The translations under genes and the position numbers were made by a program. The notes beneath the pieces are model-generated. The model saw nothing but the letters and a program-made list of their open reading frames with translations. It had not been told where the DNA came from and did no database searches. Of a stretch of DNA of 10,947 nt, positions 349-10,947 are shown one piece after another. Position 1 is the first letter of the stretch. Each line of letters opens with the position of its first letter. Source of the stretch: a virus (taxonomy: Duplodnaviria > Heunggongvirae > Uroviricota > Caudoviricetes); the IMG/VR virus record IMGVR_UViG_2648501669_000001. One strand, given 5' to 3'.

Positions 349-1872
349 ATGTTTAATTTTTTCAAACGCAAAAAAGATATGCCCGTGAATCCGGTTAAGA
401 AAATCGGTATTCGCCAACACCGCAAATTATTTGTAGATCGCAAGATTGAAGAATTTACCAAAGACTTACATAAACGCTCTTTGGGATTGGTTGAAAGCGA
501 CCGCATTGAAGGAAGTATGGCGCGTAATGTCATCACTGGCAGCATTAACAGCGCGATTAAGGGGTCCGCATCACGTCTATACAATCAAGGCCGTTATCTT
601 GCGTTAAACACTTCTATTGGCTCCCGTTATTGCCAACACGTTATTGATTCCGTGGTAGGTACTGGCTTACAGCCTCGAACCTTCGTTATGAAAGGGGAAA
701 AGCTGGACGCAACCACTAACACCGCTATTGAGAATGCTTTTTGGCGTTGGGCTAGCTCTCAGAAACGATTCTCGCGCATCGGAAAGATTAACTTCCTTGA
801 ATGCTTAAAGTTGATGGAAAAAGAGCGCGTGATGGGTGGTGATGCGTTTCTGGTACTCCATGAAGATGGTAAGGATCTGCAAGTATCCATTTATGGTGCG
901 GATTGTGTTGATTGGTCAGATCAGCGCACCTTAGATAACGGTAATGTCGTTTACGCTGGCATCGAATATGAAGATGAAAAGCCCGTTGCATATTGGTTTA
1001 GGCGTCGTGACCTGTTTACTCAGTCCTTTACTGGCGAACGTGTACGAATCCCGGCGGAAAGAGTGCTGCATTACTTTATCCCTGGTACAGCCGACGCATT
1101 ACGTGGTATTACTGATTTCTTGCTAATAATCAAAGATATAGCTCATCTTGAAGCGTTCCGCGAGACTGTAATAATCGGTAAGCGCGTGCACGCAAGCAGC
1201 ATGGCCTTTATCACAAGCGATAAAGAAAATCAAGATTCATTTGATGTTGGTGAAGATGACACGGAAAACTATCAACCGCCAACAATGATCACTGACTTCG
1301 AACCGGGTACTATCAATATACTGGAACCGGGGCAAGACGTTAAAACGGTACAATCAACTCAAGGCGGCGATGATTTCGAAAAATTCAATGAAGCAATGCT
1401 GACTTCTATTTCTATGGGTCTGTCTAGCTTTAAACAAGCTCTTACAGGAGATACAAGTTCTATTAACTACTCATCAGCAAAATTCGGTCATAATATTGAA
1501 TCCGCTCGCTTCAAGACGCATCAAGATCGCTTAGTTGATACTGTTATTCTTCCATTATTTGAGGCGTTTTTACGTCACGCGGTAATTAACTCAAAAATCA
1601 ATGTTCGCATGACGCAGATCGATTCTATTTTGGATGCAACGACAATTATTAGACCTCGCGTTACGTCTATTGAACCGATCAAAGATATTCAGAGTGAAGT
1701 TCTGTTAATAGAAAGCGGATTGAAGTCTAAAGCTCAGGTCATTATGGAAATGGGTCAAGATCCGTCTCAGGTCTTTAAAGAAATTGAGGCAGAAAAACAC
1801 ATGCTAAATACATGCGTCGTGAGTGAGGGTGAGACTGAAAAAGAAAAATCTCCTGATACTCAAAATGAATAA
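349..1872 (+). CDS. Phage portal protein (lambda gpB-like family)
   Basis: 507-aa ORF with AAGGA Shine-Dalgarno 7 nt upstream. Size and position (first gene of the head module, directly before the protease-capsid gene) fit a portal. The C-terminal region (LLIESGLKSKAQVIMEMGQDPSQVFKEIEAEK) resembles the lambda gpB C-terminus as I recall it. Confidence 0.8.
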   Translation: MFNFFKRKKDMPVNPVKKIGIRQHRKLFVDRKIEEFTKDLHKRSLGLVESDRIEGSMARNVITGSINSAIKGSASRLYNQGRYLALNTSIGSRYCQHVIDSVVGTGLQPRTFVMKGEKLDATTNTAIENAFWRWASSQKRFSRIGKINFLECLKLMEKERVMGGDAFLVLHEDGKDLQVSIYGADCVDWSDQRTLDNGNVVYAGIEYEDEKPVAYWFRRRDLFTQSFTGERVRIPAERVLHYFIPGTADALRGITDFLLIIKDIAHLEAFRETVIIGKRVHASSMAFITSDKENQDSFDVGEDDTENYQPPTMITDFEPGTINILEPGQDVKTVQSTQGGDDFEKFNEAMLTSISMGLSSFKQALTGDTSSINYSSAKFGHNIESARFKTHQDRLVDTVILPLFEAFLRHAVINSKINVRMTQIDSILDATTIIRPRVTSIEPIKDIQSEVLLIESGLKSKAQVIMEMGQDPSQVFKEIEAEKHMLNTCVVSEGETEKEKSPDTQNE

Positions 1873-1914
1873 CCCAACGGGGCGCAATGCCCCCAATAAT
1901 TTTCAAGGTGATCT

Positions 1915-3969
1915 ATGACAACAAAACAATTCCGTCGTAGTGTTGCGGTAGATACCCCTGATTTTATCGAAGAAAAAGACGAACGAATTATTGAATTGGC
2001 TTTCTCAAGCGAGGCTCCTTATACACGTTATTACATGAATCAGGACGGCGAGCAAGTCGAATTAAAAGAGATTCTCGTACACGATGAATCAGCGGTTGAT
2101 CTATCCGTTTTAAACGAGACTAACGCAAGTCTTCTGTTTAATCACAATCTGGATCTTCATATCGGCAAGATTGTTCCTGGCTCCGCTCGTATTGACGAAG
2201 ACCGTGTAGGTCGTTGCCTTGTCCAATTCTCCAAAGTAGGCCAACTGGCTAATGAATGCTTTGAGAAGGTAAAAGAGGGAACACTTTCACAAGTTAGCGT
2301 CGGTTATAACGTTCTTGATGGCAAAGCCGATTTTAACAAAGGGATCTATTATGTTACACGCTGGCAACCTTTCGAATGCAGTCTTGTAACGTGTGCCGCA
2401 GATCCATTTAATGCGGGTGTTGGACGCTCTCTAAATACAGACAACGAAATGATTGTTTTGGAGGGTGAACAAGTGGAAGACGAAATTAAAGATACTCCGG
2501 TCGAAGAAATTAAACCGGAAGATGAAGAAAAACGTTCCGAAGAAGAGAAAGAGGAACAAGAAAATGAAGAAATTGATTCCGATTCTGGAAATAGTGCTGA
2601 CAGTGGCGAAGATGTGGAAGAACCGCAAGAAGTAACGCCAGAAGAAAAAGAAGAACGTTCCGAAGATGAACCGGAAGAAACAGAAGAACTAAATAAAGAT
2701 ACAGACGAGAACGACGAAACGGAAAATACATCCGAACCAGTCGAAGAAGAAAAGATTGAAGACGAAGAAAAACCGTTTGAACGTTCTCGCGAAGATACCG
2801 CCGAAATTCGTGCTATCGGAAAACATCTAAATATCTCCGAAGACGTGATTGAAGCTGCAATTAAAGATAGTGCCGTGACTATTGAAAATTTTAAAGAAAA
2901 AGCACGCGCACTAAATACTACCGAATCTAAAACTTTTGTTAAAGGAAAAATTACCATGACCGATACCATTAAAACTCTGGAATCCCGTTTCGATCTTAAT
3001 AAAGCTGTACGTGCAATCGCAGAGGGTAAAGCCCTGACTGGCGCAGAAGCTGAATATTCTCAGGAAGAAGCACGTAAAGCCGCAGCGCGTGGTCGTGCGC
3101 AGCGTTCTAACTCCGTATTCATTCCGGCGTCCGCTCTGCGTGCTAGCCAGAACATGGAATCTCTGAAACCAGTAGTTGGTGAAGAAATCCGCCATGATTG
3201 CTTCGTTGATATGATCATGGAACGTTCTATTCTGGGTAAATTGGGTGTGCGTACCATTAACGCAACTGGTCCTGTTTCTCTGCCGTCTCTGACTTCCAGC
3301 AATCTGGAAAACTTCGGTTTTGTTGCAGAAGGTCAATCCGCTGGTGAAGGTACTATTAAGTTTGCAGCGCAGCCGATGACTCTCAAGACTTTTAACGGAA
3401 TTGTTCCTGTAACGCGTCAGGCTGCAATCACACTGCCCAATATTGGCGCTATCGTTGGTGAGCACATGCTGAAACACAGTGCTATCGCTCTGGAAAAAGC
3501 GATTCTGTCCAATGCTGCTAACACTAACGCTCGTGATGGTCTGACTAAGATCCTGACCGACGCTGGCAAAGTTAAACAGATTGATTGGACCTATGCCGAG
3601 TTCCTGAAACTGGTAGCTGAACTGACCGACAAAGGTTATAACGAAGCGGATCTGGCATTTGCTACCCGTGGTGTTGTTAAAGCTGAACTGGCAGCGCAAC
3701 TCAAAGCAGCTAATGTTCCGGGCTTCCTGGTAGAAGGCGATAAACTGGTTAACCGTCCGATCTATGGCTCTGGTGTAGTTGCTCAGGATACCATGCTGTT
3801 TGGTGACTTTAGCTCCCTTGTTGTTGCAGACTTCGGATCGCTGGAACTGGATTGCGACGATACCACAGGTCGCGCGGCTGGCAACCTGTACTTCCGTGTA
3901 TGGGCTGATCTGGATTGGGCTGTTATGGACCATAGCGCACTGACCGTAGTTCAGAAAAAAGTTGACTGA
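1915..3969 (+). CDS. Prohead protease - acidic scaffold/delta linker - HK97-fold major capsid protein fusion
   Basis: 684-aa ORF with AAGGTGA Shine-Dalgarno. The N-terminal ~170 aa look like an HK97-type prohead protease. Residues ~183-300 are a hyper-acidic low-complexity linker (EEKRSEEEKEEQENEE...). The C-terminal ~290 aa are HK97-fold capsid-like (e.g. GDFSSLVVADFGSLELD). It sits immediately after the portal. Confidence 0.8.
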   Translation: MTTKQFRRSVAVDTPDFIEEKDERIIELAFSSEAPYTRYYMNQDGEQVELKEILVHDESAVDLSVLNETNASLLFNHNLDLHIGKIVPGSARIDEDRVGRCLVQFSKVGQLANECFEKVKEGTLSQVSVGYNVLDGKADFNKGIYYVTRWQPFECSLVTCAADPFNAGVGRSLNTDNEMIVLEGEQVEDEIKDTPVEEIKPEDEEKRSEEEKEEQENEEIDSDSGNSADSGEDVEEPQEVTPEEKEERSEDEPEETEELNKDTDENDETENTSEPVEEEKIEDEEKPFERSREDTAEIRAIGKHLNISEDVIEAAIKDSAVTIENFKEKARALNTTESKTFVKGKITMTDTIKTLESRFDLNKAVRAIAEGKALTGAEAEYSQEEARKAAARGRAQRSNSVFIPASALRASQNMESLKPVVGEEIRHDCFVDMIMERSILGKLGVRTINATGPVSLPSLTSSNLENFGFVAEGQSAGEGTIKFAAQPMTLKTFNGIVPVTRQAAITLPNIGAIVGEHMLKHSAIALEKAILSNAANTNARDGLTKILTDAGKVKQIDWTYAEFLKLVAELTDKGYNEADLAFATRGVVKAELAAQLKAANVPGFLVEGDKLVNRPIYGSGVVAQDTMLFGDFSSLVVADFGSLELDCDDTTGRAAGNLYFRVWADLDWAVMDHSALTVVQKKVD

Positions 3970-4098
3970 ACTCCTGTAGAACCTTCTGAACCTTCCCCCG
4001 ATTCGGGGGAAGAAAATCTGATTCCTAAACCGGAAGAAGAATCCCAGACGGTTACGGCGAAAGCCACAGCAAAACGAGGCCGCAAGCCTAAAGAATGA
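3970..4098 (+). other. In-frame open extension after the capsid UGA stop (42 codons ending ...VTAKATAKRGRKPKE); candidate readthrough product
   Basis: Same frame as 1915-3969, with no stop codon until TGA at 4096-4098. The stop context is UGA-A. It contains the 36-bp core repeat 4051-4086 that is identical to 9994-10029. Confidence 0.4.
4051..4086 (+). repeat. 36-bp exact direct repeat, copy 1 (gttacggcgaaagccacagcaaaacgaggccgcaag); encodes VTAKATAKRGRK
   Basis: Identical to 9994-10029. The flanking sequence is also similar at DNA and peptide level. Confidence 0.9.
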
Positions 4099-4103
4099 TA
4101 ATT

Positions 4104-4130
4104 AGCCCTGCCTAGTGCGGGGCTTTTTTG
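4104..4130 (+). terminator. Rho-independent terminator downstream of the capsid gene and its extension
   Basis: GC-rich hairpin agccctgc / CTAGT loop / gcggggct followed by TTTTTT. Confidence 0.6.
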
Positions 4131-4159
4131 TATGTAAATACTCCATAAAGGGGGTAACT

Positions 4160-4450
4160 ATGTTCAAATTATCAGAATCACAATTATCAAGAATGTTTAA
4201 GAGTGCTCCTGTATTTTCGGTGGAAGGTGGTAAATCAATTCGTGCTTATCATGAAATTACTACTACCGACGAATCGGGGGTAATGACAGAAACCGAATTT
4301 CTATTCTGTCGTGAGGGAGACTTAAATCAGGGTGATATTGTCATTGTAGAAAACCAGCGTTTCAAAGTTCAATACGTTAAGCGCAATGGTGATAATACCA
4401 CTGATTGCTTTATTACTCTGGCAGGGGGTACACATGCTCGCTACCGTTAA
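4160..4450 (+). CDS. Small head-tail connector / head completion protein (putative)
   Basis: 97-aa ORF from the internal ATG at 4160, preceded by AAAGGGGG Shine-Dalgarno. The longer ORF-track start at 4115 lies inside the upstream terminator. Size and position (between capsid and tail terminator) fit a connector. No strong motif was recognised. Confidence 0.5.
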   Translation: MFKLSESQLSRMFKSAPVFSVEGGKSIRAYHEITTTDESGVMTETEFLFCREGDLNQGDIVIVENQRFKVQYVKRNGDNTTDCFITLAGGTHARYR

Positions 4451-4856
4451 TAATATGCCTAGACTGAAAATCAAACGCGCCTTGCAAGATATTATCGAAC
4501 AAGATTTAGGTCTGGCTTTAAACGTAGAACAAACTCAGCAAGGTTTTAGTGATGACGTGGTTTGTTGGATTACTGGCATGAATGAGACTTACACTAGGGT
4601 CCGTGGTGGTAATGCAATGCAAGCTGAATGCGTTATCGAAATGCAATTATATTCTCAGATTCATGAAACAAAAATCCATGAGGGTATTTGCCAGATAATC
4701 CAGATTCAGCCGGATAACCCACGTTTTAAAGATTTGGGCTTCTCTATTTCAGATATCACTCCAGTAGCCTCTAATACCGATTATGACGATGATTCTAGTG
4801 ATGGGGGTATCGTTGGGACACTTAGCCTTAAATTTTCTTATCTAGCGCGTTTTTAA
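4434..4856 (+). CDS. Tail terminator protein, lambda gpU-like (putative)
   Basis: 140-aa ORF from ATG 4434 with AGGGGG Shine-Dalgarno, overlapping the previous gene by 17 bp. VCWITGMNETYT...ECVIEMQLY and the acidic C-terminal TDYDDDSSDGG resemble lambda gpU (VAVYLTGAEYT...ELHIEVFL...YDYRRDDDAG) as I recall it. Confidence 0.55.
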   Translation: MLATVNNMPRLKIKRALQDIIEQDLGLALNVEQTQQGFSDDVVCWITGMNETYTRVRGGNAMQAECVIEMQLYSQIHETKIHEGICQIIQIQPDNPRFKDLGFSISDITPVASNTDYDDDSSDGGIVGTLSLKFSYLARF

Positions 4857-5779: not shown

Positions 5780-8700
5780 ATGCAATCAATCCAATTTAAA
5801 CGCACACAAACGGCTGGTAAAAAACCAACGCCGGAACAATTATCACAGGGTGAATTGGCTATTAACCTTGCTGATCACGTTCTGTATACCAAAGATAAAA
5901 ATAACGCAGTAGTTCAAATCTCTGTTTCTCCAGAAAAACACGCTGAACTTAACACGAAAGTAGACCAGAATAAAACTAGCACTGACCGTGTTATTGCTTC
6001 CAACAAACAAGAGGCCGCTAATAATCTGGCTAGTGTTAAAGCTGAACTGAATCAGACTATTACCGCTAAAGACACCGCAACCAATAAGCGCATTGATGCT
6101 ACCAACACCACTGTTAGTAACTTAACCCAGACAGTTACGGCAAATAAAACCGATGCCGACACTAAGATCAATAACCTTACGGGGACCGTATCTGCGAATA
6201 AGACCGCAATTGAAAGAACCGTTGCCGCAAACAAATCTGATGCAGATAGCAAACATGCAGCTTTAACGAAAACGGTCACTGACAATAACACCGCGATTAA
6301 CAACAAGGTTAATACCACTAACACCAACGTTAGCAACTTAACTAAAACTGTTACTGCAAATAAAACCGATGCAGATAACAAAATTTCTAGCTTAACTAGC
6401 ACGGTTGCAGCTAACAAAACAGCGATTGAAAAGGTCGTTTCCGACAACAAGAAAGATGCTGATACTAAAATCAGTAACCTTACTGGCACTGTGAATAGTA
6501 ACCATACCGCTATTAACAACAAGGTAGACCAGAACAAATCATCGACCGATGCCGCAATTACAGCCGCCAACAAGCGAATTGATGGTATTGAAGGTAGTGC
6601 TAACGCAGCATATATCAAGAAGAACACAAAGACCTATCACGGCGCGTATTTGTATAGCAAGACTGGTAACTATCTGGAAGATTCAACCGCGAGAGATCTT
6701 AATTACTTCGGTGCATTCCGTACCAATGGTCAAGATGGACTCATGGATCTAACCCTTAACGTTCCTCACTCTTCCGGTAAAGCGCATGGTCGAGGATTTA
6801 CTTTCCGTTATGCGTCTGGCGGATCTCGTGTTGAAACCTATGGTTTTGATGCTCAGGGACAAAAAGCGTTTAGCTATAAAATGTATCACGAAGGGGATAA
6901 ACCGACTCCTGCTGAAATTGGCGCATATACCAAAGGCGAAATTGATAAGATGTTTATTAAAAATGTCACAATGTCTGTTCCTTCTGGTAGTGAATCCCGT
7001 GCTTATTTCAAGATTGCTACGGCTACGATCCCACAAAATGGTCGTATGGTAATGCTTCGTATCTTCGGTGGTAATGGTTATAACGTTAACTCCTATGATC
7101 AGGTTGATTTCCTTGAAATTGTTATCCGTTCCGGTAACAATAACCCGAAAGGCGTTAGTATTGCTGCTTATCGTCGAAACTCTTTGAACGTTCATCAAGT
7201 ATTTGCGGTTAATACTTCCGGTGATAACTACGACATTTACGTTAACTACGGTCGTTATACTGATAACGTTATTGTCGAATATGGTAAGACTAGCGGTGTT
7301 TCACTGACTGTTCATGACACCCCAGCTATGACTAACGTTAAGCCGTCTACTGGTGTTACAGATGGACGTGTTATTACAATGTTCAACACCGAAAACAAGG
7401 CCGGAACGTTGATGTTTGATAATAACGGACAGGGTACATATGATATTGTCAGTTTGAATAACGATTCAGGTACTGGTAAAAAATATCTTCGTAAATTCCG
7501 TAGTAAAGCCGCAGAAACAATCTGGCATGAAACTGTTCAAGGTAACGTTTATCGTTTAGCGACTGGTACTACCGATTCTAGCGAAGTTCTACGAATCACT
7601 GGTCGCACCATGTTTACTGGTAAAGGTGTATTTGATGCCGGACAAAACGTTCTTAGATTAGAGCGTCCTAGTAATCAATCAAACTATATTGAATGGCAAG
7701 ACCGCCGCAATGGTGCTAATGCTCGTCAAGGTTGGATTGGTTTTGGTAGTGCTGAAACAAATAACTTCCAATGGTATAGCGATCAGGGGAAAAACTCATT
7801 TCAGCTAGAAGCTAACGGTCAATGCTCTATTACCACTGGTGCAACTAAAATTGTATATACAAACGGCGAGTATGTAGCTGCTAACTCAAATGCATTCCGT
7901 ATGATTTACGGCAATTATGGTGCATTTTGGCGCAATGACTCCGCAAAAGTTTATCTTCTGTCAACGGCTGAAAACGATAAGTTTGGTGGTTGGAATACTT
8001 ATCGACCATTCATTTATGATCTGACTTCCGGTAACGTTCAATTAGGCGGTGATGGTAACGAAGATGCATTAACGTTAGAACGTGCAAGCCGTGCCGCTCG
8101 TTTTAGTAATGACGTTTACATTAAGAAAGGTTTTTTGACTTTCGACGCTGGGCGTTCTGGATCGCGTGATTATATTCGATTTAATCATTGGGGCGATAGC
8201 AACAACGCCCGTGATAACGTTTTATACCTCGAAGACAGCAAAGGTCGCCATTTCAGCACCGAACGTAATATGGCTACAGGTGGACTAAAGGCATATTTCT
8301 TAGGTGATCTTGAAGTTGCTGGTCAAATGAGATGGGGTAAGAATACCGGACAATCTAGCTTCAATATTCGTGCATGGGGTAATGATACTCGTAAACAAGT
8401 ATTAGAATGCGCAGATGAAAGCGGCTGGCATTTCTACACACAGCGTGCTGGCGGTCCTGGTACTACCGCAATCGAGTTTAGCGTAAACGGTAAAATTAAC
8501 GCTCCCCAACTGTCTATTAGTCAGGATGCAACCATTCCTAAGTTTAATAGCGGTTTTGGTGTTGGTGTTGCTAACGGATTGGGTGGAAATTCTATTGTTT
8601 TAGGCGATAGTGATACTGGATTTAAACAAAACGGTGATGGTGTCCTTGATACCTACGCTAATAACGTTAATGTTGTTCGTCACACATCTGGCGGCATTAC

Positions 8701-9388
8701 CTTTAACCGTCGTGTTGTTGTTGCTAACAAAAATGGTTTAGGTTATTCCGATATCTCTGATGTAACTCGTGACCGTGCTCCATTCTTGGTTAACATGGAT
8801 AGTATTAAGGGGTCTGGTGCATATTTCCCTATTATCGCTGGCTATAGTAACTTAGGTGATGTTGGTTATCGTCAGTCCTTCGAGTTTGGTTGGACGGGTA
8901 GCGGTTCGACTCACGGTTGGCGTACTGGTATTATCCGTATGCGTGGCGATAACGCCAACGGGCAGCAAGCACGCTGGGAATTTACTATGGATGGTGACTT
9001 TACCGCAGGTCGTAACGGTAGCTTTAACGATGTTTACATTCGCTCTGACTCCCGTTTGAAGATTAACAAGGAAGAATTACAGGACGGCGCATTAGAGAAA
9101 GTAAACTCCCTGAAAGTCTACACCTACGATAAAGTTAAATCTCTTTCAGATGACACAGTGATTAAACGCGAAGTAGGTATTATTGCTCAGGATCTGGAAG
9201 AAGTGTTGCCGGAAGCAGTAGGTATTCAATCCACCGAAGATCCAGAACAACCGGAAGCAATTAAGACTATTTCTAACTCTGCTGTTAATGCCTTGATTAT
9301 TAAAGCTATTCAGGAAATGGACGCCAAATATCAAGCTAAGATTGAAGCATTGACTAAAGAGATTGCCGAACTCAAAGCAACTAAATAA
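5780..9388 (+). CDS. Tail fibre protein with a repetitive shaft and a C-terminal intramolecular chaperone (peptidase S74-like) domain
   Basis: 1202-aa ORF with GAGGTGA Shine-Dalgarno. The N-terminus has a tail-fibre anchor-like motif (KKPTPEQLSQGELAINL). Tandem T/N/K-rich repeats form the shaft. GLGGNSIVLGDSDTGFKQNGDGVLD and ADESGWHFYTQR resemble the conserved distal region of P2 gpH-type fibres as I recall them. The C-terminus has an SDSRLK (S-D-x-R-x-K) autoprocessing motif followed by a coiled-coil-like tail. Confidence 0.85.
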   Translation: MQSIQFKRTQTAGKKPTPEQLSQGELAINLADHVLYTKDKNNAVVQISVSPEKHAELNTKVDQNKTSTDRVIASNKQEAANNLASVKAELNQTITAKDTATNKRIDATNTTVSNLTQTVTANKTDADTKINNLTGTVSANKTAIERTVAANKSDADSKHAALTKTVTDNNTAINNKVNTTNTNVSNLTKTVTANKTDADNKISSLTSTVAANKTAIEKVVSDNKKDADTKISNLTGTVNSNHTAINNKVDQNKSSTDAAITAANKRIDGIEGSANAAYIKKNTKTYHGAYLYSKTGNYLEDSTARDLNYFGAFRTNGQDGLMDLTLNVPHSSGKAHGRGFTFRYASGGSRVETYGFDAQGQKAFSYKMYHEGDKPTPAEIGAYTKGEIDKMFIKNVTMSVPSGSESRAYFKIATATIPQNGRMVMLRIFGGNGYNVNSYDQVDFLEIVIRSGNNNPKGVSIAAYRRNSLNVHQVFAVNTSGDNYDIYVNYGRYTDNVIVEYGKTSGVSLTVHDTPAMTNVKPSTGVTDGRVITMFNTENKAGTLMFDNNGQGTYDIVSLNNDSGTGKKYLRKFRSKAAETIWHETVQGNVYRLATGTTDSSEVLRITGRTMFTGKGVFDAGQNVLRLERPSNQSNYIEWQDRRNGANARQGWIGFGSAETNNFQWYSDQGKNSFQLEANGQCSITTGATKIVYTNGEYVAANSNAFRMIYGNYGAFWRNDSAKVYLLSTAENDKFGGWNTYRPFIYDLTSGNVQLGGDGNEDALTLERASRAARFSNDVYIKKGFLTFDAGRSGSRDYIRFNHWGDSNNARDNVLYLEDSKGRHFSTERNMATGGLKAYFLGDLEVAGQMRWGKNTGQSSFNIRAWGNDTRKQVLECADESGWHFYTQRAGGPGTTAIEFSVNGKINAPQLSISQDATIPKFNSGFGVGVANGLGGNSIVLGDSDTGFKQNGDGVLDTYANNVNVVRHTSGGITFNRRVVVANKNGLGYSDISDVTRDRAPFLVNMDSIKGSGAYFPIIAGYSNLGDVGYRQSFEFGWTGSGSTHGWRTGIIRMRGDNANGQQARWEFTMDGDFTAGRNGSFNDVYIRSDSRLKINKEELQDGALEKVNSLKVYTYDKVKSLSDDTVIKREVGIIAQDLEEVLPEAVGIQSTEDPEQPEAIKTISNSAVNALIIKAIQEMDAKYQAKIEALTKEIAELKATK
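6101..6530 (+). repeat. Tandem in-frame coding repeat in the fibre shaft (two ~72-aa units built from ~12-aa sub-repeats)
   Basis: Unit A (TNTTVSNLTQTVTANKTDADTKINNLTGTVSANKTAIER...TAINNKV) and unit B (TTNTNVSNLTKTVTANKTDADNKISSLTSTVAANKTAIEK...TAINNKV). The antisense ORF 6052-6627 is a shadow of this repeat. Confidence 0.8.
9044..9388 (+). other. Predicted C-terminal intramolecular chaperone domain of the fibre, released by autoproteolysis at Ser ~1089
   Basis: SDSRLK at 9044-9061 matches the S-D-x-R-x-K Ser/Lys dyad pattern of tail-spike and fibre chaperone domains (endosialidase, T5 pb1) as I recall it. The domain is ~113 aa, a typical size. Confidence 0.55.
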
Positions 9389-10089: not shown

Positions 10090-10596
10090 ATGGCAAATGT
10101 CGTTAATAAGCCCGGCTGGGTCGGATCATCTGCTGTATCGGTGACGGGTAAGCGATGGATGAAAGAAGCATTAACAGCTTTAAAAGTTCCGGCTCCGCGT
10201 AATATGTCGGCAATGGCTGGTCGTGGTATGGATACGGTTGTAGCTACTGCATCGTGGTCTACTTCATTGGGTAATAACTGGGGTGTAACTGCTTCAAACT
10301 ATCCTGTTTCCGGTATGCAAAGCAAAGGATCTATGGAGAACCCCGAAAACGTGGGCGTAGGCCGTCTAATTGGCGTTATCGTTGGTCAATTCAATGGCGG
10401 TACTCCTACTATGGCTGTATATCTCCAGAACGGTAGAGCGGGGAATATAACCGTTAATTTGGGTGGTGCTGCTGTCACTGTTCCTTATAACAGTATGCAA
10501 AGTGGTTTTCATTACTACTGGTTAAGCAATCCTCCGGCAGCTTTCCTCAATAACATTAAGAAGACTGGCACTAAGCAGACTTTGAAAATCTCTTAA
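10090..10596 (+). CDS. Hypothetical protein (168 aa), G/S/T/N/W/Y-rich, possibly a structural or receptor-binding accessory
   Basis: ORF with GGAG Shine-Dalgarno and a TAA stop 14 bp before the IS1 terminus. No family was recognised. Confidence 0.55.
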   Translation: MANVVNKPGWVGSSAVSVTGKRWMKEALTALKVPAPRNMSAMAGRGMDTVVATASWSTSLGNNWGVTASNYPVSGMQSKGSMENPENVGVGRLIGVIVGQFNGGTPTMAVYLQNGRAGNITVNLGGAAVTVPYNSMQSGFHYYWLSNPPAAFLNNIKKTGTKQTLKIS

Positions 10597-10610: not shown

Positions 10611-10850
10611 GGTGATGCTGCCAACTTACTGATTTAGTGTATGATGGTGTTTTTGAGGTGCTCCAGTGGCTTCTGTTTCTATCAGCTGTCCCTCCTGTTC
10701 AGCTACTGACGGGGTGGTGCGTAACGGCAAAAGCACCGCCGGACATCAGCGCTATCTCTGCTCTCACTGCCGTAAAACATGGCAACTGCAGTTCACTTAC
10801 ACCGCTTCTCAACCCGGTACGCACCAGAAAATCATTGATATGGCCATGAC
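10611..10850 (+). mobile_element. Truncated IS1 copy (terminal inverted repeat through the 5' part of insA)
   Basis: Matches the canonical IS1 sequence from base 1 (GGTGATGCTGCCAACTTACTGAT) for ~239 bp as recalled. Mismatches begin at ~10850 and similarity is lost by ~10865. Confidence 0.9.
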
Positions 10851-10884
10851 TGGAGTTGGAAGCCTGCATCTTATACACATCTGA
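10666..10884 (+). pseudogene. insA: Truncated/hybrid insA: first ~61 aa identical to IS1 InsA, then an unrelated 11-aa tail
   Basis: [61 protein letters not shown] matches the InsA N-terminus including the CPSC...CSHC zinc-finger. The C-terminal [11 protein letters not shown] diverges from the InsA helix-turn-helix region. Confidence 0.7.
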
Positions 10885-10947
10885 CGCTCACGACGATCGA
10901 TCTAGAACAAACAACACAGACTCACACCCGCAATCAACAGAAATACA

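Follow-up and report, generated by a model that had tools for sequence, protein, structure and literature searches.

Fusions of a prohead protease to a capsid protein have been called "common in small-genome siphoviruses" (PMC9671004), and they have also been reported for the RcC cluster (PMC8601537). The closest known cases (Microbacterium cluster EE, Rhodobacter cluster RcC and the phages ep3 of Escherichia coli, phiHAP-1 of Halomonas and VP882 of Vibrio) combine an N-terminal S78 protease with a C-terminal HK97-fold capsid protein in a single open reading frame (ORF), with a low-complexity linker and a conserved three-helix motif in between, and the papers searched treat them as simple fusions. 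The same architecture is found in the 684-residue ORF at positions 1915-3969 of the DNA analyzed here (IMG/VR record IMGVR_UViG_2648501669_000001; 10,947 nucleotides (nt) at full length, hereafter the window), which is the head/tail-fibre part of an Escherichia coli prophage. A preliminary description had drawn attention to a hyper-acidic stretch within this ORF and had proposed that it acts as a built-in scaffold or delta domain that is removed on maturation. The acidic tract is real but by itself ordinary, as it is an extreme, clade-specific form of the disordered linker of protease-capsid fusions. The noteworthy part is that the gene appears to be a stop-less dicistron with a nested start for the capsid protein, which would alter both the molecules that carry the tract and the role that it could play.

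Nested genes of this kind are established for protease and scaffold. In lambda C/Nu3, HSV-1 (herpes simplex virus 1) UL26/UL26.5, Haloferax tailed virus 1 (HFTV1) gp17/gp17.5 and ostreid herpesvirus 1 (OsHV-1), and also in other herpesviruses, an in-frame internal start yields an abundant short partner of a rare, protease-bearing long form, as proposed here; their long form is reported to be roughly 3- to 10-fold rarer. In these systems the covalent link ensures that the procapsid takes up the protease. The locus shares with them an in-frame internal start codon with its own ribosome-binding site (AAGGA-ATG 2956), whereas the short product would here be a PF05065 capsid protein and not a scaffolding protein encoded apart from the capsid gene, and the anchor of the protease would be the shell instead of the core. 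No homology to S49, assemblin or gpO proteins was detected in a Pfam search. P2 gpO likewise joins an N-terminal protease via a flexible region to a C-terminal assembly domain, but it is made as a single polypeptide and lacks both a nested start and a fusion to the capsid protein gpN. HK97 gp4 and gp5 belong to the same protease family (PF04586) and share the capsid fold, and the lack of an evident scaffolding gene between the portal and head-completion genes is an HK97-like trait of the window. In HK97, protease and capsid protein have a gene each, and targeting of the protease depends on its C-terminal tail. The present case would join two known themes, the fusion and the nested gene, with a capsid protein in place of a scaffold as the nested product. 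Within the searchable literature collection, we found no description of an internal capsid start in protease-capsid fusions, which is weak evidence of novelty, and no experimental study of their processing or start sites. Xanthomonas phage Xp10, considered as a further fusion, is not one: in Xp10 and Xop411 the ClpP-type p08 and the capsid protein p09 are separate.

Domain searches agree with the first assignment of the ORF, as a protease-capsid fusion. Peptidase_S78 (PF04586) matches residues 59-162 (E 7e-10, with 39.6 bits where 21 are required), and residues 427-680 match Phage_capsid (PF05065; E 4e-14), the latter also being found with M348-D684 alone (E 4e-15). PHROG 617 matches the ORF from end to end (1.5e-68), PHROG 4523 ("major head and protease protein") matches too, and the RefSeq label is "phage major capsid protein". 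By these matches, the ORF links a Peptidase_S78 protease with a capsid protein of the HK97 fold. An AlphaFold2 model built from an alignment of 147 sequences (mean predicted local distance difference test (pLDDT) 79.8) resolves, in order, the protease, the acidic tract, a three-helix module, a short linker and the capsid protein (Table 1).

Evidence for a nested capsid start comes from the DNA around M348. A Shine-Dalgarno (SD)-like AAGGA (2942-2946) lies 9 nt upstream of ATG 2956 (aaAAGGAaaaattaccATG, nt 2942-2958), and codon usage changes at the same place. The fraction of E. coli-preferred codons (Fop; Glu and Lys excluded) is 0.47 for residues 1-347 and 0.79 for residues 348-684, compared with 0.53 for the portal gene and 0.69 for the tail tube gene, and Leu is encoded by CTG in 3 of 19 cases upstream of M348 versus 27 of 32 downstream. 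The maximum-likelihood change point in codon bias is a plateau at codons 331-364 with a log-likelihood ratio (LLR) of 30, a value reached in 0 of 2000 shuffles, and M348 is the sole in-frame ATG with an SD match inside this interval. When five enterobacterial lineages were pooled, codon adaptation was 0.85 in the capsid cistron versus 0.49 in the tract and three-helix module together (p = 5e-53), and 0.54 in the protease. A search for sigma-70-like promoters upstream of 2956 on the plus strand found none, and an internal transcript is thus not indicated. Since ribosomes that start at 1915 traverse the whole ORF, equal flux should lead to equal adaptation, and strong independent initiation at M348 would therefore explain the codon contrast most simply.

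The start signal and the step recur in relatives, for which about 15 fusion loci were examined at the DNA level. Three Salmonella relatives (57-72% identity) have the SD with an ATG at codons 340, 345 or 354 and change points at 343, 346 or 365 (LLR 42-50), with Fop rising from 0.55 to 0.90. Locus L003 (about 40-50% identity, depending on region) has AAGGA-7 nt-ATG with a bias step at the same place; another E. coli locus, L020, has AAGGTG-6 nt-ATG with Fop values of 0.47 and 0.79; and phage DCP80 (37% identity) has AAGGA-10 nt-ATG, with Fop increasing from 0.57 to 0.82 across M321. Among loci from other hosts, L015 and L017 (26-37% identity) show AAGGA-7 nt-ATG together with a fall in the effective number of codons (ENC) from 49 to 35 and from 46 to 36, respectively, whereas L016 has the same AAGGA-7 nt-ATG but is essentially stepless (ENC 38.1 and 37.0). 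Across L003, DCP80, L012-L017 and L020, the SD is preserved as a nucleotide sequence while the residues that it encodes differ (KGK, KD, KE). A wider sample consisted of 118 representative fusions clustered at 50% identity, 22 of which have hyperacidic linkers of unrelated sequence. Nearly all of these 22 (21) carry a Met within about 0-8 residues, mostly 1-4, of the capsid N-motif, and in about 15, as judged by eye, K-[D/E] stands 4-5 residues upstream of that Met. In the wider family, the Met at position -8 of the motif gMSDKE..YSL was rejected as a start: it alternates with Leu, has no SD in ep3 and is read as a structural residue.

Recombination has also treated the position of M348 as a border. 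Three relatives (P0008, P0021 and P0024) are approximately 100% identical to the window protein up to residues 340-358 and 30-55% identical thereafter; at the nucleotide level, identity is 100% up to about nt 1020 of the ORF and about 33% beyond it. Further junctions lie inside the acidic tract at about residue 225 (P0005) and before the HK97 body (P0009, in which this body is 85% identical and the remainder 64-77%). By these comparisons the ORF is a recombination mosaic in which position 348 acts like a gene boundary.

We therefore favor, with some reservation, the reading that the gene consists of two cistrons run together without a stop codon, in which the capsid protein is made from its own start and the long form tethers the protease. 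Because the conserved SD-ATG at M348, the step in codon adaptation and the mosaic junction coincide, the tract is probably confined to a long form of low abundance through which the protease enters the shell. Several points weigh against this reading. Internal initiation is deduced from sequence statistics alone, and part of the codon step could stem from the mosaic ancestry of the two halves, whose histories are partly separate. The Fop values depend on the list of E. coli-preferred codons that was used, whereas the ENC values are independent of it. The best change point of DCP80 lies further upstream, at codon 204, and the steps of DCP80 and ep3 together fall at about codons 204-221, so that the location of the nested start is not uniform across the family. 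The alleles with deletions in the tract that are described below may belong to defective prophages.

Stand-alone relatives are few. Searching with M348-D684 for independent capsid homologues that start at the homologous Met returned only five, mostly partial, proteins, and the sole stand-alone relative, P0274, has a 70-residue N-terminal extension that is uninformative for the start. P0155, a 297-residue protein with protease and linker, was considered as a natural stand-alone upstream cistron and rejected as a truncation: locus L018, which comes from a further E. coli strain, contains at 2501-4564 a DCP80-like fusion gene that an IS3-family element interrupts directly after the three-helix module, which gives rise to P0155.

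The acidic stretch itself is confirmed. Positions 2461-2815 are in frame and encode residues 183-301 (119 residues), which comprise 44 E, 13 D, 8 K and 5 R; they are 48% acidic with a net charge of -44, and E, D, K and S make up 61%. The protein outside this range is 13.6% acidic (binomial tail 3e-19), and the Shannon entropy is 3.2 bits compared with 3.96 for the remaining protein. The internal repeats noted earlier are true at the DNA level, as a 59-nt direct repeat (D1; 73% identity) with a spacing of 123 nt. The range holds for the acidic core but not for the boundaries, which structurally fall at residues 175-289; the last 12 residues of the original range (ERSREDTAEIRAI) are part of helix 1 of the confidently predicted three-helix module. 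Likewise, the tract does lie between the protease and capsid domains but does not adjoin the capsid fold, as about 135 residues of ordered or linker sequence intervene. Disorder prediction, which had been suggested as a check, gave the same answer by two routes: in the AlphaFold2 model residues 175-283 have pLDDT values of 38-45 and no secondary structure, with confident domains on both sides, and in a Uversky charge/hydropathy plot the tract alone falls on the disordered side. An unperturbed coil of about 115 residues would have a radius of gyration (Rg) of about 3 nm. Pfam and PHROG searches returned no family for the tract or for the three-helix module. ORFs that overlap the tract in other frames or on the other strand (for example 2349-2969, minus, 206 residues, S/F-rich) were dismissed as by-products of the GAA-rich sequence.

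Natural alleles differ in the tract. When seven E. coli prophage copies are aligned, all indels lie within it: the window allele is without PEEEIK; strain HeN100 (P0002) is without 41 residues, exactly the 123-nt spacing of the D1 repeats; and alleles of 632 and 616 residues are without 58 and 68 residues, in frame. The natural deletion end-points fall in the D1 repeats, and elsewhere the 649-, 632- and 616-residue alleles are 99.5-100% identical (99.6-100% for the two shorter ones). An acidic tract occupies the same position in each of 120 enterobacterial homologues (53-98% identity); it is 52-155 residues long, with a charge of -15 to -47 and an acidic content of at least 33%. Across the 118 representatives, the linker has a median length of 54 residues (range 20-148) and a median charge of -6 (range -37 to +3), so that the window linker, at -45, is more extreme than all of them. 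As in the 22 hyperacidic representatives, composition rather than sequence is kept in the tracts of L003 and DCP80, whereas the linkers of ep3, phiHAP-1 and VP882 are short, rich in Q, T, G and P, and non-acidic. Hyperacidity is thus, by sequence comparison, clade-specific. Because the charge bias persists while sequence and length vary, the conserved property is hydrophilic, net-negative disorder and neither a specific sequence nor a fixed length.

The same variability could be read to mean that the tract is largely neutral GAA-rich filler, prone to slippage and recombination, whose charge and length have no specific role. In-frame indels between internal repeats, the wide range of linker lengths, the many linkers that are only mildly acidic and the P0005 junction within the tract all fit this explanation. 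We consider it unlikely, as neutral drift would not readily account for a net negative charge in nearly all linkers, for hyperacidity that arose with unrelated sequences in 22 of 118 representatives, or for the acidity kept in all 120 enterobacterial homologues. Hyperacidity moreover goes along with a start placed immediately ahead of the capsid N-motif (21 of 22) and with a shortage of starts directly following the protease (12 of 22 versus 78 of 96; p = 0.012). Taken together, the pattern points to selection on composition.

The domains that flank the tract are confidently predicted. H77, S128 and E154 are invariant across the 147 aligned fusions, and the protease looks active for this reason; we take H77 and S128 to be the equivalents of HK97 H65 and S114. 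The three-helix motif ExxRxxEIxAIGxx...AIxxGxxxxxF is conserved family-wide, including in ep3, phiHAP-1 and VP882. Residues 348-411, which form the N-terminal domain of the predicted capsid cistron, bear the motif FDLxxAVRA...GxExExS...FIPxxxLR, in which P404 and R409 are nearly invariant; this segment is a candidate for the true delta-like domain and is probably removed. Foldseek aligned the C-terminal approximately 270 residues with the mature capsids of R4C, D3, HK97, 80alpha/SaPI1 and RcGTA (E 1e-16 to 1e-11; target TM-score 0.6-0.77), and the capsid part also matches 8gta_A by sequence (E 9.5e-12). The solved homologous chains (243-300 residues) align to these C-terminal residues only, and the R4C chain begins at about query residue 417, with its residue 5 aligned to residue 421. 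Because mature homologous chains cover only this part, all sequence N-terminal of about residues 410-425 is probably removed at maturation.

The proposal of a built-in scaffold or delta domain thus stands in one half: the tract is very probably absent from the mature shell, but a scaffold or delta role is not supported by its properties. In its full form the proposal holds that every capsid subunit is made as the complete fusion, with the tract driving assembly before it is digested. The position of the tract N-terminal to the capsid fold within a single ORF is compatible with this, as is the extent of the mature homologous chains; S78 proteases cut away the N-terminal part of HK97-type capsid proteins, and many scaffolding proteins are acidic. 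A delta domain, however, is ordered, largely helical and contiguous with the capsid fold, as in HK97, and the tract is none of these, being predicted to be disordered and separated from the fold by two conserved helical modules. Its sequence is unconserved, the linkers of distant fusions such as ep3, phiHAP-1 and VP882 are non-acidic, and 41-68 of its approximately 115 residues are missing in otherwise identical alleles. Codon adaptation in the tract is as low as that of the protease and far under that of the capsid part, and the internal SD and ATG at M348, together with this codon step and the junction in the mosaic, speak against its presence in the majority of capsid subunits. A universal scaffold is decidedly unlikely on these grounds; the tract is probably not in every subunit, and the conserved helical modules at residues 290-334 and 348-411 are better scaffold or delta candidates.

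A further possibility is that the gene gives three nested products, the third starting at GTG187 and comprising the tract, three-helix module and capsid protein without the protease; such a scaffold-like protein of intermediate abundance would be akin to lambda Nu3 or HSV UL26.5. An SD and start follow the protease directly in all six lineages examined. The pair is present in the window; L003 has GGAGG and then ATG182, Salmonella relatives have GAGGA and then GTG185, and DCP80, ep3, phiHAP-1 and VP882 have such a pair as well. A Met occurs within 30 residues after the protease in 76% of the 118 representatives versus 40-53% in control windows, and the codon-bias steps of ep3 and DCP80 lie after the protease. 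The window clade, however, shows no rise in adaptation from protease (0.54) to tract (0.49), the hyperacidic representatives are depleted in Met at the post-protease position, and a GTG with an SD could arise by chance in G/A-rich sequence. Expression of this third product therefore seems quite unlikely to us.

A mechanism is proposed on the basis of the two-cistron reading. Initiation at ATG 1915 would give a low-abundance 684-residue long form containing the protease, tract, three-helix module, linker and complete capsid protein, and initiation at the internal AAGGA-N9-ATG 2956 would give an abundant 337-residue capsid protein equipped with a helical, delta-like N-domain of its own. Through its capsid moiety, the long form would then co-assemble into the procapsid shell and hold the protease inside on a flexible leash, whose Rg is expected to exceed about 3 nm given a charge of -0.4 per residue, and whose reach could allow one enzyme to access the N-terminal segments of neighboring subunits. 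The strong negative charge may keep the leash expanded, soluble and free of nucleic acid. Following cleavage near residues 412-425, the charge could favor the loss of protease-leash fragments as DNA enters. We infer internal initiation, co-assembly, cleavage and the role of charge from statistics of the sequence and from a structure prediction.

The preliminary description had also contrasted the acidic tract with a basic readthrough tail at the C terminus of the same protein and had hinted at a charge-based interaction. The 42 codons that continue in frame after the TGA do not encode a basic tail, as they contain 7 K/R and 9 D/E (net charge -2); only the last 12 residues (KATAKRGRKPKE) are basic, and these are what an electrostatic pairing with the tract would have to rely on. 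Salmonella relatives have an equally acidic tract but a TAA stop, with neither a tail nor a downstream ORF, and no more than a small share of subunits would have either the tract or the tail. In HK97-fold proteins an N-terminal extension points inward, and a C-terminal one, as in T7 10B, is exposed on the exterior; by this analogy, tract and tail would lie on opposite faces of the shell. Pairing of the two is extremely improbable, and a functional link between tail and tract is not supported.

The tail frame is nonetheless open in 6 of the 7 E. coli copies, one of which has a much-diverged capsid gene; in the seventh, L004, a 1-nt change shifts the tail out of frame, and two copies carry an in-frame 27-nt deletion in it. 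In L020, both the capsid module and the post-TGA tail differ from those of the window, but the tail closes on the same motif (..TAKATAKKAGRPSKTAK), and this K/R-G-R-K/P motif resembles the core of an AT-hook. These features are compatible with UGA readthrough that yields a small share of capsid subunits with a C-terminal extension, like T7 10B or Qbeta A1. A perfect 9-bp, G+C-rich hairpin (CUUCCCCCG-AUU-CGGGGGAAG) without a U-run lies inside the tail ORF at 3992-4012, 23 nt after the TGA, and a canonical intrinsic terminator at 4104-4124 is followed by a T-run (region 4104-4130); the 181-nt region folds at z = -3.6. Stimulation of readthrough, a pause site and an effect on mRNA stability are possibilities for the hairpin.

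Table 1. Features of the protease-capsid gene and its immediate surroundings (window coordinates; pLDDT from the AlphaFold2 model)
Feature	Position	Strand	Details
Long ORF	1915..3969	+	684 aa, 75.5 kDa, isoelectric point (pI) 4.5
Prohead serine protease domain	1948..2430	+	aa 12-172; pLDDT 87-97
Putative catalytic His77	2143-2145	+	Invariant in the 147-sequence alignment
Putative catalytic Ser128	2296-2298	+	Invariant in the 147-sequence alignment
Hyper-acidic disordered tract	2437..2781	+	aa 175-289; 56 D/E, 10 K/R and 16 hydrophobic of 115 residues; pI 4.05
Weak candidate second internal start	2460..2475	+	GGAGG 2460-2464, 8 nt, GTG187 2473-2475
Direct repeat D1, copy 1	2504..2562	+	Encodes ..EEIKPEDEEKRSEEEKEEQE; 59 nt, 73% identity
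Direct repeat D1, copy 2	2627..2685	+	Encodes ..QEVTPEEKEERSEDEPEETE
Three-helix module	2782..2916	+	aa 290-334; helices 292-304, 309-317, 323-333; pLDDT 91-94
Short disordered linker	2917..2955	+	aa 335-347; pLDDT <50 for aa 335-346; contains AAGGA 2942-2946
Inferred nested capsid cistron	2956..3969	+	ATG 2956-2958; M348-D684, 337 aa, 36.1 kDa
Helical N-terminal domain of capsid cistron	2956..3147	+	aa 348-411; helices 352-358, 361-370, 376-391; pLDDT 80-91
Flexible segment	3148..3189	+	aa 412-425; pLDDT <50; predicted maturation-cleavage region
HK97-fold capsid body	3190..3966	+	aa 426-684; pLDDT ~80-97
Post-TGA in-frame extension	3970..4101	+	42 codons and double stop (TGA TAA)

The gene stands in the following order: terminase gpA, a small gene, a lambda-type portal, the 684-residue ORF, an FII-like head-tail protein, two unknown genes, a 1202-residue fibre and the tail tube. 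It is 100% identical to its counterparts in strains 39EVA and HCP5S3_I4, and among 5426 complete E. coli genomes only 7 had a near-full-length match. When 50,697 phage records were searched with the gene by Megablast, no DNA-level match emerged; the element is known solely as a prophage and is rare in E. coli. The closest match in the phage collection, DCP80 (locus L008, PQ671644.1, positions 1492-3492; 37% identity), lies in a 141-kb Straboviridae/Tevenvirinae record, where a lambda-type portal accompanies the fusion gene. Such a neighborhood is odd for a T4-like genome, and the record may be chimeric or misassembled.

Some observations concern the tail module. The 1202-residue tail-fibre gene (5780-9388) lies between the head-completion genes and the tail tube gene and begins with an array of repeats of about 25 residues (NKTDADTKI.NLTGTV.ANKTAIE); it differs from the 39EVA copy in length and sequence, with only pieces at 81-89% identity, and in distant syntenic relatives the gene at its position has a Peptidase_S74 chaperone domain. 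A 168-residue protein encoded at 10090-10596 has the N-terminal domain of the T-even Gp38 adhesin (PF21721, E 2e-15), here in a lambda-like, siphovirus-type prophage. Colinearity with the 39EVA prophage stops at about 10608, and positions 10637-10947 hold an ORF that we take to be insertion sequence IS1 InsA-like, which suggests that the tail module of the source strain has been cut short by an IS1 insertion.

Many phage and prophage genomes have protease-capsid fusion genes annotated as a single polypeptide, which would mean a protease on every capsid subunit and about 400 additional residues for each inside the procapsid, a stoichiometry problem that would be gone if the capsid protein has an internal start. 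It is possible, although doubtful, that the widespread genes annotated as protease-capsid fusions are in general stop-less dicistrons in which a rare full-length subunit tethers the protease, and that in the hyperacidic members the leash determines, by mutual repulsion, how many protease-bearing subunits fit in and is expelled electrostatically by incoming DNA. Protease delivery would in that case differ both from HK97, with its non-covalent tail, and from lambda and the herpesviruses, in which the protease is fused to the scaffold. Annotation pipelines would have to call the nested cistron if the two-cistron reading is correct, and the tract, with its ready-made deletion alleles, would be a simple natural system for the effects of tether length and charge on an encapsidated enzyme. 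These genes would join the nested morphogenetic theme of lambda, the herpesviruses and HFTV1, with the new twist that the protease is anchored to the shell protein.

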